A stretch of DNA of 39,835 bases from a virus (Duplodnaviria > Caudoviricetes): positions 1-39,835 of the IMG/VR virus record IMGVR_UViG_3300047090_000046; one strand, given 5' to 3'. The notes under the pieces are model-generated. The model saw only the letters and a list, made by a program, of their open reading frames with translations. It made no database searches and had not been told where the DNA came from. Numbering within the stretch: the first letter of the stretch is position 1; every line of letters begins with the position of its first letter. Below, piece after piece: positions 9,154 through 39,835 of the stretch. The translations under genes were made by a program, and so were the position numbers.

Positions 9154-9191
9154 AGACGACCTGTCCCCTATGCCGGGGGGCAGGTCGTTTG
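9154..9191 (+). terminator. Strong hairpin between major tail and chaperone genes
   Basis: AGACGACCTGTCCCC/GGGGCAGGTCGTTT stem. Confidence 0.55.
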
Positions 9192-9211
9192 CTATTCACA
9201 GGAGGTCAAGG

Positions 9212-9739
9212 ATGCCCACGTTTGAGGCTGCGGAGCAGGCGAAGGACGACCCTTTGCGGTTGCCAATCCCCGGTGCTGACGGGTTGGTCCGGACGTATGA
9301 GATCCCGGTCCTCGACGCTGCCGGGCTGATCGAACTCAGCCAGCTCGAGCGCAGCGTCAGGATGATCACGGTCGGGTTAGGTGACCGTGTCCCTGACGCG
9401 GAGGTAGCGAAGCTCGACGCGATGACCCAACGCCAACACGTCGAACTCGTCCTGTCCGCCGGGACGGTGGACCTCATGCTCAAAGACCGGATCGATCAGC
9501 GGATGTTCACGGCGGCGGCGATCACCGCACAGACGTGGCACACGAGGGGCACGAAAGCTGCCTACGACGCTTGGGAACGGCTCGCTGTGCATCCGGGGGT
9601 GGATGACCCTTTAGCGTTCCCCCCGGTGAATCGGGGGGCGAAGAATGGTGGCGGAAATACGAATCCGACGATGGCGAGTTCCTCGTCATCCCGGAGTCGG
9701 AAGTCGCGGCGGAAGGGGAAAACGCGGGTTGGTCGCTGA
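9212..9739 (+). CDS. Tail assembly chaperone (G-type)
   Basis: AGGAGG before ATG 9212; lies between major tail and tape measure; contains slippery C_CCT_TTA at 9607-9613. Confidence 0.82.
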   Translation: MPTFEAAEQAKDDPLRLPIPGADGLVRTYEIPVLDAAGLIELSQLERSVRMITVGLGDRVPDAEVAKLDAMTQRQHVELVLSAGTVDLMLKDRIDQRMFTAAAITAQTWHTRGTKAAYDAWERLAVHPGVDDPLAFPPVNRGAKNGGGNTNPTMASSSSSRSRKSRRKGKTRVGR

Positions 9740-16699: not shown

Positions 16700-17263
16700 A
16701 TGCTCGAAGCGTCGTTGTTTTTCGCGGCACCCGTTGACCTGCTGACCAGCGAAACGGTGAGCGTCGTCGGCCCAGTCGGGACCGTGATCGGCGTCATCCT
16801 CGGCCTGTACTGGGCGTTGCAACGTGAGGGCCTGGTCACAGGTAAGGCGCACCGGCGGGAAGTGGAGAAGCTGTCCACCGACCTCACCCGTGAGCGTTTG
16901 GAGCATGACGACACGATCAAGGCCATGCGTGAGGATTACCACGGCCGGATCAAGGACATCCGTGATGACTGGGAACGGCAGGCGTCGCGGCGGGAAGCTG
17001 AGAATCAGGGCACCATCGCGGGATTACGGGCGGACGTGGCCCGGTTGTACGGTGCGTGGCAGATCACAGAATCGTCGGCGGAGCGGCTAGTCAGGTCACG
17101 TATCCGGGCGGACGATGAAACGATCCTTACTCTGATGGAAGCTATCCGCCGTTCACAAAACGGTGAGCGTCTGGAGCTTCCAACGACCACGATCGGATCG
17201 AGTAGTGGCCCTGATGACGATGGACGACCAGACACCGGTCCCGGACACGAGAGAGATTCTTGA
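16700..17263 (+). CDS. Membrane protein with coiled coil (lysis-cassette associated)
   Basis: One TM segment (GPVGTVIGVILGLYWAL) followed by GLV.G..H and coiled coil. Confidence 0.68.
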   Translation: MLEASLFFAAPVDLLTSETVSVVGPVGTVIGVILGLYWALQREGLVTGKAHRREVEKLSTDLTRERLEHDDTIKAMREDYHGRIKDIRDDWERQASRREAENQGTIAGLRADVARLYGAWQITESSAERLVRSRIRADDETILTLMEAIRRSQNGERLELPTTTIGSSSGPDDDGRPDTGPGHERDS

Positions 17264-17411
17264 GCGCGCTTGGCGGCTCAAGAGGTTGACTCTGCCGATC
17301 GCTGACGCTTGGGACCGGCTAGGGGATATCGCATCGGAGGTGAGAGACGTAGACGCATTCCGGGCCGCATGGGTCCGGGAGCAACGATCACAACGGGGTG
17401 AGTGGCAGTGA
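17214..17411 (+). CDS. Small hypothetical protein
   Basis: Fills the gap between two membrane genes; start uncertain (17214 or 17220). Confidence 0.5.
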   Translation: MTMDDQTPVPDTREILERAWRLKRLTLPIADAWDRLGDIASEVRDVDAFRAAWVREQRSQRGEWQ

Positions 17412-17773
17412 CGGTTTCAGGTATTGCGGGGGATATGGCGGCGCAGACGGTCACGGACTGGGCGCGCATCGCAGCGGCGGTGATGGTCCTCGCGTGTTTC
17501 GCGGCGTACAGCCTGCTGACCAAATGGTGGAAGGACCTCGCACTGCTCGCGACGTGGCTGCTATTCACGGGCCTGTTGTCGGTGCTGGCGCTCGCGGTGA
17601 CCAGCCGGTATCAGGTGTACCCGGATGAGTGGAAACCGTGGGTAACGGCCGGTGTGTGGATCTTCATTGCCGCCCTGTTCGCGGGCTGGTTGGTTGCGTA
17701 CCTCTGGACGCAGCTCCGCCCTGTCCGGCGCCGGCGCGCAGCGGAGGACAGGGCGAAGGTCGGGCGGGTTTAG
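17402..17773 (+). CDS. Putative holin (3 TM segments, basic C-terminus)
   Basis: Three hydrophobic helices and an RPVRRRR tail; near endolysin. Confidence 0.62.
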   Translation: MAVTVSGIAGDMAAQTVTDWARIAAAVMVLACFAAYSLLTKWWKDLALLATWLLFTGLLSVLALAVTSRYQVYPDEWKPWVTAGVWIFIAALFAGWLVAYLWTQLRPVRRRRAAEDRAKVGRV

Positions 17774-17976
17774 TCGTCGGGTAGCTCGCGGCGCGCGGAC
17801 GCTAACGCTTGCTCAAGGGCGGCGCTCAGCGGTCGCGCACCGGGGCAGGAGTTCAGCCATCCCCAGATGTGCCGAAGCTGATCGTTCGTCACAGTGGGAA
17901 CGTCTGACAGGTTGCGGCGGGATTCGAGATCCGCTGTGATGGCGCGCTTGGCTCGGGCGCGTTGTTCGGGTGTCAT
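17770..17976 (-). CDS. Hypothetical protein (68 aa, MTPEQRARAK…)
   Basis: ATGA-coupled to the upstream minus-strand gene; GAGGA RBS. Confidence 0.6.
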   Translation of the reverse strand: MTPEQRARAKRAITADLESRRNLSDVPTVTNDQLRHIWGWLNSCPGARPLSAALEQALASARRELPDD

Positions 17977-18101
17977 CGGTCCTCGTTCGGGTCGTAGGGT
18001 CCGGGGTTCAGTGGGCAGGGACACTGCCAGCACCCGTAGTGCTCGGCGTGCTCGTCGACAGGGTGGCCGCATTCGGCGCAGGTGTCGACGTCGTCGGTCA
18101 T
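17973..18101 (-). CDS. 42-aa Cys/His-rich putative zinc-binding protein (absent from ORF track)
   Basis: MTDDVDTCAECGHPVDEHAEHYGCWQCPCPLNPGPYDPNEDR; ATGA overlaps at both ends. Confidence 0.68.
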   Translation of the reverse strand: MTDDVDTCAECGHPVDEHAEHYGCWQCPCPLNPGPYDPNEDR

Positions 18102-18460
18102 CGGGCGAGCTCGGCGCGGATCGCTGCCCGCTGGGCGACCAGCTCGTCAACCCTGTTCGCGACGATCGAGTAGTCGCGGGATCCGAAGGCGGGGGAGTCG
18201 CGTAGGGCGCGCTCACGCTTCCGGACGGTGGTCAAGGACGCTTCGACGCGGTGGAGCGCCGTCTTAGCGCAGTCGACGCATACCTCGTGCTGCAGCTCAC
18301 GGCCAGCGGCCATGATGAGCTCGAGCAGGTCGATCGGGTTGATCAGGGGTTCCGGCATTGAGAGCAGTAGGGATTCTCGTTCGATCCGGGCGGCTCTCCC
18401 GACGTAGCTGTCGGTGCAGTCTTGGGTGTGGGTGAAGGCCGGGGCGGTGGTGTTGGTCAT
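18098..18460 (-). CDS. Hypothetical protein (120 aa; HxxxC and CxxC motifs, C-terminal coiled coil)
   Basis: ATG 18460 lies 7 nt from a -10 box. Confidence 0.72.
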   Translation of the reverse strand: MTNTTAPAFTHTQDCTDSYVGRAARIERESLLLSMPEPLINPIDLLELIMAAGRELQHEVCVDCAKTALHRVEASLTTVRKRERALRDSPAFGSRDYSIVANRVDELVAQRAAIRAELAR

Positions 18461-18496
18461 AAGAACTATGCTACGGCACGTGACACAGATAGGCAA
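18461..18496 (-). promoter_or_regulatory. SigA-type leaderless promoter with operator copy
   Basis: Minus strand TTGCCT-17 bp-TAGCAT-7 nt-ATG; operator TGTCACGTGCCGTAGCA. Confidence 0.78.
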
Positions 18497-18584
18497 CCCG
18501 GAATCACCGGTAATCCGCGCAATCCGCGTCACGCGCAACCACGACACCTACCCTGACAAACACCAACCCACCAACGGAGGCCAC

Positions 18585-18767
18585 ATGCCAGACGAACCAG
18601 ACCAACTCACCCCAGACGAACGAAACGACATCGTCCCCGGCTACGAAACCGACCTGTCGGCGGTCGGAACCAACCGGGAAGCAACCGACCCCGACCCGCG
18701 CCCGTGGAACGAAGTACACGGGCTCACCGAAGAGGAAGCGGAGGCACTGACCGATGATCCTGCCTAG
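18585..18767 (+). CDS. Small acidic protein preceding endolysin
   Basis: AACGGAGG RBS before ATG 18585; overlaps the lysin start. Confidence 0.68.
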   Translation: MPDEPDQLTPDERNDIVPGYETDLSAVGTNREATDPDPRPWNEVHGLTEEEAEALTDDPA

Positions 18768-19572
18768 CGGCGCATCGACCGCCGACTACTCCCGGCTCGC
18801 GAACTCACGCGGGTGGGGTCCGGGTTGGCCTGCGTGCGGCGCCATCAACGGCGGCCAACTACGGCAGGTGACCCTGTCGAACGGTGCCCGCATCCTCGGC
18901 GGTATCCACGCCAACGTGCAAGAACTGTTCACCCTGATCGGTAACGAGATCATCCGCCGCGGCTACTCGTTCCGGGACGGTTGGTGTTGGGGCGGGGAAT
19001 GCCGATCGATCAGCGGCACGTCGACCCCGTCCAATCACTCTTGGGGGTTGGCCGTCGACGTCAACGCACCGACCAACCCCTACACGAGCTCCGGTCAGCA
19101 TGACATCCCTGACTGGGCGTTCGCGTTGTTCCGGTCCTACGGGTTCGGTTGCGGCGCCGACTACAACGGCAAGAAAGACTGGATGCACGTCGAATTCATG
19201 GGCACCCCGTCCGATGCGGCGACGATGACCGGTCTAGCTCGGCGGAACTTCACCGGCACCCCGGACCCGACACCACCAACCCCGACCCCGACCCCGGCAC
19301 CAACACAAACAGGAGACGATGACGACATGTACCGCACCGTGCAGAACAACGGGCGTTGGTTCGCTGCAGCGCCCGGCCGGTTCTTTCACATCGAAAACCA
19401 GGACCATTTCGCGGTCGGTCAGGCGGTCGGGTTGTTCCCGGCCGGTGACCCGAAACCGATCGGCGCCAGCGAACTGGACATGCTCAGGGATGTTTGCCTC
19501 GGCAACGGTGTCGACAAGGACCTGAACTTGACGGACCGGTTGCCGTCCGACGTCGCAGCGGGAAAAGCCTAG
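18754..19572 (+). CDS. Endolysin: M15-family zinc peptidase, PT linker and C-terminal domain
   Basis: R…SNHSWGLAVDVN and DWMHVEF M15 motifs; PTPTP linker. Confidence 0.9.
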   Translation: MILPSGASTADYSRLANSRGWGPGWPACGAINGGQLRQVTLSNGARILGGIHANVQELFTLIGNEIIRRGYSFRDGWCWGGECRSISGTSTPSNHSWGLAVDVNAPTNPYTSSGQHDIPDWAFALFRSYGFGCGADYNGKKDWMHVEFMGTPSDAATMTGLARRNFTGTPDPTPPTPTPTPAPTQTGDDDDMYRTVQNNGRWFAAAPGRFFHIENQDHFAVGQAVGLFPAGDPKPIGASELDMLRDVCLGNGVDKDLNLTDRLPSDVAAGKA

Positions 19573-19604
19573 GCCCGGCCGATCAGCTAAGGATCGTGCT
19601 GGGC
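19560..19604 (+). other. Candidate programmed -1 frameshift signal in endolysin
   Basis: In-frame G_GGA_AAA at 19560-19566, 6-nt spacer, stem-loop at 19573-19604. Confidence 0.72.
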
Positions 19605-20003
19605 GTCTGCAAAGCGCGGGGCGTCGACGACTACACCACCCGGGCGGCTGTCCTCACCGCGGCCGCGGAGTCGGACTTTGACCCGGCCGCGGTGCAGCAC
19701 GGCCGGACGTTCGGTGTGTTTCAGCAGACCGACGCGGTGAACAGCGCCGGCGTCCCGTTCTGGCCGACCGCGCACGGTACGACCGCTCAGCAATGCAGCG
19801 CGTTCCTCGACGACTTCACGGCGCAGACCGGCCGGCACACGGGCGACCTGGTCCGGGATTGTTGGGTTACGCAACGCTGGTCTGTGCCGAACGAGGGCGT
19901 CACGTGGCCGGATCCCGGGCCGGGGTTCGGTCAGGCACCGGAAACCCTGAACTACTCCCGTAGGTTGCCGGATCTCCCGCGGCTCTTGTCGGGTCGTATC
20001 TGA
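19566..20003 (+). CDS. Lysozyme-like / transglycosylase domain, probably made as a -1 frameshift extension of endolysin
   Basis: AAVLTAAAES (catalytic Glu) and FGVFQQ motifs of the lysozyme-like superfamily; no well-placed start/RBS. Confidence 0.75.
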   Translation, partial: SLGPADQLRIVLGVCKARGVDDYTTRAAVLTAAAESDFDPAAVQHGRTFGVFQQTDAVNSAGVPFWPTAHGTTAQQCSAFLDDFTAQTGRHTGDLVRDCWVTQRWSVPNEGVTWPDPGPGFGQAPETLNYSRRLPDLPRLLSGRI

Positions 20004-20069: not shown

Positions 20070-20336
20070 ATGCCGGAACTCGTCGCAGTAGGCGAAGCGC
20101 TGCCGAAGATTCAGAACGCAGCGAAAACCATCGGCACTGCGATCACGTCCGTACTCGGCGCGGGGCTGATCGGCGTGCTGGTCGTCATCGTTCCGGACGA
20201 GTGGGACGAGCAGGTCATTGCGTTCGGTGGGTTGCTGACTTTGGCCGCGAACGTGCTCGTCACGTGGGGCACCCGGAACAAGGCGACGGTGCCGCTGATC
20301 GTGAACCCCGGCCCGGCCGCACCGATCATCCCGTGA
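20070..20336 (+). CDS. Putative holin (2 TM segments)
   Basis: Two hydrophobic helices ending VTWGTRN; directly after lysin; AACGGAGG RBS. Confidence 0.68.
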   Translation: MPELVAVGEALPKIQNAAKTIGTAITSVLGAGLIGVLVVIVPDEWDEQVIAFGGLLTLAANVLVTWGTRNKATVPLIVNPGPAAPIIP

Positions 20337-39671: not shown

Positions 39672-39835
39672 TGGCGCTATCCGGCAAACAGTGGGCATCG
39701 ATCCGGCACGCGACCGGAGTCGTCAACCTATGGGACGGCGCGATCCGATCAGGGAAAACCACGGCCGCCAACCTGGCGTGGCTGAACTACGTACGGACCG
39801 CGCCACCCGGGCACCTGGCCATCATCGGCAAAACA
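39671..39835 (+). CDS. terL: Terminase large subunit, N-terminal part (continues at window start)
   Basis: MALSGKQWASIRHATGVVNLWDGAIRSGKT. Confidence 0.9.
   Translation, partial: MALSGKQWASIRHATGVVNLWDGAIRSGKTTAANLAWLNYVRTAPPGHLAIIGKT
39709..39834. repeat. Terminal direct repeat, right copy
   Basis: Identical to 1-126. Confidence 0.95.

Follow-up and report, generated by a model that had tools for sequence, protein, structure and literature searches.

The endolysin gene of the phage analysed here most probably ends in a -1 frameshift site, by which a 272-aa M15 endolysin and a minority 416-aa form with an added lysozyme-fold domain would be made from one gene; we give this reading a probability of about 0.88. 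The recoding signal is real and well supported, and its gene context, an endolysin, is new. The 416-aa protein itself and a fixed ratio of the two forms are predictions. The added domain is encoded by the -1 frame (ORF2).

The window, that is the whole stretch of 39,835 nucleotides that was analysed, is a 39.8-kb tailed-phage genome with 64.5% GC, in which terminase, portal, major head, tail chaperone and major tail genes are present. Its sequence is found in soil and rhizosphere metagenome runs, with no RNA run listed among them, and the phage is uncultured; the GC content and the taxa of look-alike clusters make Actinomycetota the likely host. Identical 55-base stretches at positions 35-89 and 39743-39797 (offset 39,708) point to ends that overlap by about 127 bases and thus to a circular and probably complete assembly of a record classed as linear and 60% complete. 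Two overlapping 148-aa reverse-strand frames at 17770-18547, without a credible family match, lie between the membrane-protein genes (16700-17773) and the lysin. The 88-aa product encoded behind ORF2, for which no Pfam or PHROG match was found, is probably the holin.

The lysin matches Peptidase_M15_4 with E 1.4e-11 (45.2 bits versus a curated cut-off of 25) and carries the motifs SNHSWGLAVD and WMHVE, which we take to be of the zinc-ligand type. By this domain it appears to be an M15 peptidase endolysin of the L-Ala-D-Glu type, the bond specificity being predicted. The 3' end of the gene reads GCG GGA AAA GCC TAG, and everything that the sequence-only reading had placed there holds: the lysin end, the phased heptamer, the 6-nt spacer, the stem and the open -1 frame (Table 1). 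This frame is open from 37 codons upstream of the heptamer to the TGA at 20001-20003, and the tandem-slip product, with the junction ...AAGK/SLGPADQLR..., is predicted to have 416 aa and 44.6 kDa, compared with 29.1 kDa for the 0-frame product. The stem has a folding energy of -20.1 kcal/mol (z -4.1), which was equalled by 0 of 200 shuffles; in longer windows of 81-101 nt around it the overall z is only -0.6 to -0.8, and the stem itself persists. GC3 is 0.83 in ORF2 versus 0.85 in the capsid gene, and no terminator-like site was found on the plus strand between the lysin and ORF2. The proposal that ORF2 has no good start of its own also stands: GTG 19596 lies inside the stem and pairs with the anti-SD at -2.3 kcal/mol, TTG 19494 at -4.0 and the lysin start at -9.5 kcal/mol, although a weak SD proves little, as 10 of the 23 uncurated reference starts in the window are weaker than -5 kcal/mol.

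Table 1. Features of the lysin region of the window and of the corresponding junctions in related contigs
Feature	Position or locus	Strand	Basis
SD of the lysin, GGAGG	18740-18744	+	sequence
Endolysin, 0-frame product, 272 aa: M15 peptidase, Pro/Thr linker, C-terminal domain	18754..19572	+	Peptidase_M15_4, PHROG endolysin
Peptidase_M15_4 match, aa 88-147	19015..19194	+	Pfam match, SNHSWGLAVD and WMHVE motifs
Likely internal start: AGGAG (19311-19315), 11 nt, ATG 19327 (codon 192), just 3' of the linker	19311..19329	+	SD pairing
C-terminal domain, 81 aa, predicted PlyCB/Lys170/LysIME-EF1-like cell-wall-binding fold	19327..19569	+	structure search
Slippery heptamer G_GGA_AAA, X_XXY_YYZ phase for -1	19560..19566	+	sequence
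-1 frame extension (ORF2), 145 aa, lysozyme-fold glycosidase-like, invariant Glu in AESD	19566..20003	+	model, profile
Spacer GCC TAG, 6 nt, contains the 0-frame stop	19567..19572	+	sequence
3' stem-loop, 12 bp, one bulged base, candidate frameshift stimulator	19573..19604	+	folding
Probable holin, 88 aa, two hydrophobic stretches	20070..20336	+	position directly 3' of ORF2, hydrophobicity
Junction C_CCA_AAA GCC TGA	L001, L002, L004, L012		
Junction A_AAA_AAC CAG TAG	L003		
Junction C_CCT_TTT CAT TAA / CAG TGA	L005, L006 (near-identical phages)		
Junction G_GGA_AAC TGA	L007		
Upstream lysin, M15	L001, L004		
Upstream lysin, M15+LysM	L002		
Upstream lysin, Amidase_2	L003, L005-L007		

Such a signal is rare by chance. 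Of 31,614 internal codon positions, 22 (0.07%) carry a perfect in-phase heptamer, and none of 130 other ORFs has one 0-2 codons before its stop. Among the 141 ORFs of the window and 18 loci only 11 end in this way, and all of them are lysins, nine being found by homology (window included) and two selected on the motif.

When ORF2 and alignments of it were used as queries, homologues were found on 12 distinct contigs, nine of which show the junction; L008-L010 start inside ORF2, where the junction is not visible, and stand outside the nine informative contigs. Duplicates were dropped (L011, L014 and L017 of L003; L015 and L038 of L002; L016 of L001), as was L013, a spurious locus from the GTDB scan. 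In all nine informative contigs a lysin or lysin-like gene precedes ORF2, which is in the -1 frame, and in eight of them the lysin stop comes 0-1 codons after a perfect in-phase heptamer, so that the relatives keep both the split ORFs and the slip site with its letters changed. The distant L018 was counted as the miss: its heptamer, C_CCT_TCC, is imperfect and is accompanied by a strong stem and an in-frame ATG 22 codons on (SD -1.3). With the window, five different heptamers are represented, and the dipeptide encoded there varies as well (GK, PK, KN, PF, GN). This variation in letters, with pattern and phase retained, fits tRNA re-pairing and would not result from a constraint on the protein. 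ORF2 identity between lineages is 26-66% (L012 is outside this matrix), and the upstream genes belong to different lysin families, that of L018 having an endolysin PHROG match and that of L012 no family. In the -1 frame the stop is overlapped by CTA, CTG, GTA, TTA or GTG, and no start is conserved; L005 (TTA) and L006 (GTG) differ at this codon, with ORF2 98% identical. Possible ORF2 starts of their own occur in L018 and L006.

Structure follows the junction less uniformly. Stems with z <= -2 are found in 7 of 10 loci including the window, and their sequences are unrelated; L004 has none notable, L002 is borderline, and L001 reaches z -2.6 only in a 60-nt window. Six loci folded together give a weak consensus of -3.67 kcal/mol, in which 1 of 8 pairs is compensatory. 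Overall, the window shows what a heptamer-type -1 frameshift site should have: an in-phase heptamer, a 3' structure (6 nt on, with about 5-9 nt expected) and a conserved -1 ORF without a conserved start. V_VV.A_AA.R and H_HH.U_UU.Y belong to the slip motifs with the highest efficiency in E. coli (PMC4066793, in the accessible part); the L003 and L007 heptamers, A_AAA_AAC and G_GGA_AAC, are low-efficiency motifs there, and the C_CC.U of L018 is a shift-prone tetramer.

The sampled ORF2 family has some further features. Many of its database members begin inside the domain, the called starts of P0018, P0023, P0024 and P0034 (protein entries only) lie at the domain edge, and stand-alone members may exist. 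In P0011 and P0014, an ORF2-family domain truncated at the called start is fused in frame to a 350-aa C-terminal region with no Pfam family, which may be a longer frameshift extension. In L012, ORF2 has an internal frame change after about 70 codons, reflecting either an error or decay. In L005 and L006, a 208-aa protein with a GFDCSGL motif, presumably NlpC/P60-like, lies 3' of ORF2 and replaces the holin. The ORF2 tree has no strongly supported branch, and we claim no order of heptamer changes. A tblastn search of ORF2 against 50,697 INPHARED records of isolated phages gave no match at E 0.1, and no relative of the whole lysin was found in IMG/VR; two protein entries, P0058 and P0059, share its C-terminal domain and end in GK.

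The sequence-only reading had called the second domain lysozyme-like, and modelling agrees with it. The ORF2 model (pLDDT 85.7) finds its best structural match in the GH184 muramidase 8b2e (Z 13.7, rmsd 2.4 over 116 residues), with 8b2h at Z 13.1, the next family being the lytic transglycosylases (Z up to 9.7). At the sequence level ORF2 is remote from GH184 (14-20% identity, profile E 0.0014-0.003) and is without the SH3-like module of these fungal enzymes; it has no Pfam match, and Foldseek alone gave no match at E <= 0.001 (best E 0.003). The profile of 34 ORF2-family sequences reaches c-type lysozyme with E 8e-5, AESD aligning on ES and GVFQQ..W on GIFQ..WW, and a Thr aligns where c-type lysozyme has its second acid. 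Glu34, one of four invariant columns in the 34 sequences, ends helix 2 in the model, as does the essential Glu41 of GH184, where the second Asp is likewise absent (PMC10394673, in the part available). The cluster atlas connects ORF2 with unnamed, mostly Actinomycetota clusters and, with a lead of 0.89, with Phage_lysozyme2. The fold and the Glu at the end of the core helix thus place ORF2, on the model, in the lysozyme-like glycosidase superfamily, and it would cut peptidoglycan as a muramidase or a lytic transglycosylase, two activities that the model does not tell apart. A lysozyme-fold family that was not described before is suggested by the 46 profile hits left at 50% clustering; some 37 of these span the full domain, and Pfam has no entry for it.

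Several other explanations have to be weighed against the frameshift. ORF2 could be an independent gene, comparable to those of the split lysin A in Gordonia phages, its translation being coupled to that of the lysin at the stop or beginning at one of two weak starts, GTG 19596 or TTG 19494. ATGA or TGATG coupling likewise gives a -1 offset, the stop is part of a CTGA or GTGA in L001, L002, L004, L006, L007 and L012, the Gordonia phage Quasar couples M15 and glycosidase genes by TGATG, and some homologues have called starts at the domain edge. However, the overlap holds no start codon in the window (CTA/G), L003 (GTA/G) or L005 (TTA/A), Quasar is without a heptamer, and coupling leaves five different perfect in-phase heptamers unexplained; the GTG at 19596, moreover, would remove most of helix 1 (model residues 3-17). 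We therefore regard coupling as quite unlikely. A frame change at the RNA level, with RNA polymerase slippage adding one base, would result in the same fusion, and L003 does have a run of six A. Transcriptional slippage needs a hybrid of about 8-9 bases, though, while the window and most of its relatives have runs of no more than 4 A or 4 T, and the conserved XXX triplet and phase are required only by tRNA re-pairing, which makes this explanation very improbable.

That the split results from an assembly error or a recent mutation in a fused lysin gene is scarcely credible. The window does come from a metagenome assembly, and L012 shows that frame errors occur in such contigs, but contigs of two runs, X1 (18700-19707) and X2 (19418-19684), bridge the junction with 0 differences and 0 gaps, and the indel that might have produced the split is thus absent from both. 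Four runs were compared at this place; X1 possibly represents the source sample, in X3 the contigs break at 19570/19571, and X4 does not cover the junction. All nine informative relatives are split in the same frame, and the in-frame lysin-ORF2 fusions that would speak for a broken gene were found neither among 1,290 longer candidates, one of which has ORF2 N-terminal to another domain, nor among the 46 profile hits. A different doubt concerns function: the slip may be real and the added domain not a lysis glycosidase, so that it binds glycan without cutting or serves another step. A fold does not show function, the Thr stands at the second-acid position, and L091 carries Exo_endo_phos after the same cassette, so not all extensions are glycosidases. 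We consider this unlikely in view of the invariant Glu34 with its counterpart in GH184 and of the gene position between the lysin and the probable holin in the window, L001, L002, L004 and L007.

Under the frameshift reading that we prefer, the stem, which begins after 6 nt, would pause the ribosome one codon before the stop, and the Gly and Lys tRNAs would meanwhile shift their pairing from G_GGA_AAA to GGG_AAA. A minority of ribosomes would slip back by one base, yielding a short and a long enzyme from one gene. The extension would cut MurNAc-GlcNAc bonds with a single Glu, in the manner of a muramidase or lytic transglycosylase, and the slip would keep the glycosidase below the level of the peptidase and tether it to the cell-wall-binding domain of the lysin. 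The ORF2 domain together with the slip cassette would then represent a module placed at the 3' end of different lysins.

A second signal lies within the same gene. The ATG at 19327 pairs at -7.9 kcal/mol, second best among 14 in-frame starts, and an equivalent post-linker start ranks among the top three in 12 of the 13 lysins examined (the exception is L001). The 81-aa domain that it opens was modelled with pLDDT 78.9 from an alignment of 7 sequences, and in a comparison with 48,161 chains the five highest places went to the LysIME-EF1 binding domain, PlyCB, EccB1, 3l9a and the Lys170 CBD; their Z is low (4.5-4.8, and 4.5-4.9 with the other structure comparisons included), and the next Z is 3.4. 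A resemblance of the EccB1 repeats to PlyCB had been noted before. We take a ring-forming fold of the PlyCB/Lys170 kind as a lead for this domain, for which the cluster atlas gave no usable match. It is common to L005, L006, L007 and perhaps L012 (21-33% identity), and the C-terminal regions of the other relatives differ. The internal start would likely add two products, the binding domain alone (81 aa) and the binding domain with the glycosidase (225 aa), and with both signals working four chains of 272, 416, 81 and 225 aa are possible.

The same kind of cassette is used elsewhere. In the window, the tail assembly chaperone gene (9170-9739) has an in-phase C_CCT_TTA at 9607-9613, followed after a spacer of about 5 nt by a C/G stem at 9619-9638; its -1 frame opens exactly at the heptamer, runs for 125 codons and ends just before a gene of tape-measure size. 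The sequence-only reading had named GGGAAAA as the usual chaperone slip site, which does not apply to the chaperone of this phage. An imperfect G_GGG_AAA occurs near 9714 in the chaperone gene. As a positive control, IMG/VR was scanned with the cassette of the relatives, CCCAAAAGCCTGACVC (C_CCA_AAA GCC TGA). Of the 98 loci obtained, 61 have a long frame on either side, and the largest groups, one of 29 and one of 9 loci, are tail-assembly-chaperone families, as judged by representatives. The scan with the window's own heptamer, GGGAAAAGCCTRACSC, found 87 matches in 85 loci, 19 with a long frame on either side; they include chaperones as well as a head-decoration/Ig pair, and no ORF2 homologue or recognisable lysin. 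G_GGA_AAA GCC TRA also ends chaperone genes in L139, L166 and L206. In L136 and L185 (989-1671), a head decoration protein is followed by G_GGA_AAA GCC TRA and an Ig-like domain in the -1 frame. A membrane-protein family (L030, L054, L061, L063, L065, L103, also L026) ends in C_CCA_AAA GCC TGA with a conserved -1 frame of 150-160 aa; its frames have 221-249 aa in five full-length loci, neither Pfam nor PHROG gave a match, and it is a candidate for another unannotated frameshift.

Besides L002, the CCCAAAAGCCTGACVC scan contained three further lysins. L029 (944-2385, minus strand) encodes an Amidase_2 lysin, C_CCA_AAA GCC TGA and then Glyco_hydro_19 in the -1 frame (E 1e-8). In L055 (953-2430, minus strand), an Amidase_2 lysin and the same cassette are followed by a 188-aa -1 frame that gave no Pfam, PHROG or PDB sequence match and no match in 50,697 INPHARED records; motifs recognised by eye (LESS...GVGPAQLTY) hint at a lysozyme-like extension. 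In L091 (458-2169), a gene with an endolysin-PHROG match and this cassette precede Exo_endo_phos in -1; distant relatives of this extension are phosphoesterases of the Streptomyces phages BillNye and Circinus, and it could act on wall polymers. These three loci were chosen on the motif and are leads excluded from the conservation count, with weak stems (z -0.04 to -1.4). They suggest repeated origins of the lysin slip arrangement.

A search of the open-access literature showed no description of an endolysin extended by frameshifting. The work of Shearman (1994) reportedly describes an internal start. It is cited where lysins are listed among genes "known to contain a frameshift" (PMC10885494, in its accessible part). 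In Streptomyces cluster BI phages, putative frameshifts are mentioned "near predicted endolysins" and holins (PMC9671017); these differ in being GeneMarkS predictions in genes near lysins, given with no slippery site, conservation or lysin fusion. The closest mechanistic parallel is the tail chaperone pair G/GT (lambda gpG/gpGT; PMC5009743, in part), in which, as in the window lysin, a heptamer near the ORF1 end gives a minority C-terminally extended product; chaperones in IMG/VR even use the same cassettes as the window and its relatives, C_CCA_AAA GCC TGA and G_GGA_AAA GCC TRA. The difference is that the window gene is an endolysin and the extension an enzyme domain, and the accessible portion of PMC5009743 contains the words "endolysin" and "lysozyme" 0 times.

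Endolysins of two polypeptides are known from in-frame internal starts (Lys170, LysIME-EF1, CD27L, CTP1L, CS74L, Ms6 LysA and 2638A; PMC9430671, in part). They resemble the window in that one gene gives several lysin forms, with an SD-led post-linker start, which in the window is predicted. The known isoforms, however, are in-frame N-terminal truncations sharing a stop (PMC9430671, same part, where "frameshift" occurs 0 times), whereas in the window a catalytic domain would be appended to the binding domain by the change of frame. The rings of Lys170 and LysIME-EF1 consist of full-length and internally started chains. The window binding domain is predicted to be PlyCB-like and would tether two catalytic activities, as in PlyC; the ring is known for PlyCB and the window domain is only a predicted fold. 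PlyCA has two catalytic activities, and PlyC is encoded by separate genes, unlike the single gene of the window. In PlyC of the streptococcal phage C1, PlyCA sits on a ring of eight PlyCB (PMC4769845, in part). The split lysin A of Gordonia cluster CT/DR phages (PMC9671378, in part; Quasar) has the same M15 and glycosidase pair in adjacent -1-offset ORFs, but with plain TGATG coupling and no heptamer in Quasar (one junction checked), while the window has CTA/G at the overlap; Quasar alone had this pair among six isolated-phage lysin regions examined.

Combining the two signals, one can imagine a combinatorial lysin in which four chains (peptidase-CBD, CBD, peptidase-CBD-glycosidase and CBD-glycosidase) assemble in a PlyCB-like ring with the mix set by recoding, and a chaperone-type cassette that is a general, reused way to plug a second enzyme (GH184-like, GH19 or phosphoesterase-like) onto unrelated endolysins and is missed by annotation. 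We offer this wider picture tentatively, as an idea that is more doubtful than probable.

In phages, -1 frameshifting has mainly been described for tail chaperones and for capsid or tail proteins, and the known multi-form endolysins are all due to internal starts in frame. By adding a catalytic domain, a conserved frameshift would offer one more means of setting the domain content of a lysin and the ratio of its forms. If this is true, many small "hypothetical" genes after lysins would be mis-annotated lysin domains with false starts, cloned lysins may miss a second activity, and the ratio of peptidase to glycosidase would matter for lysis.
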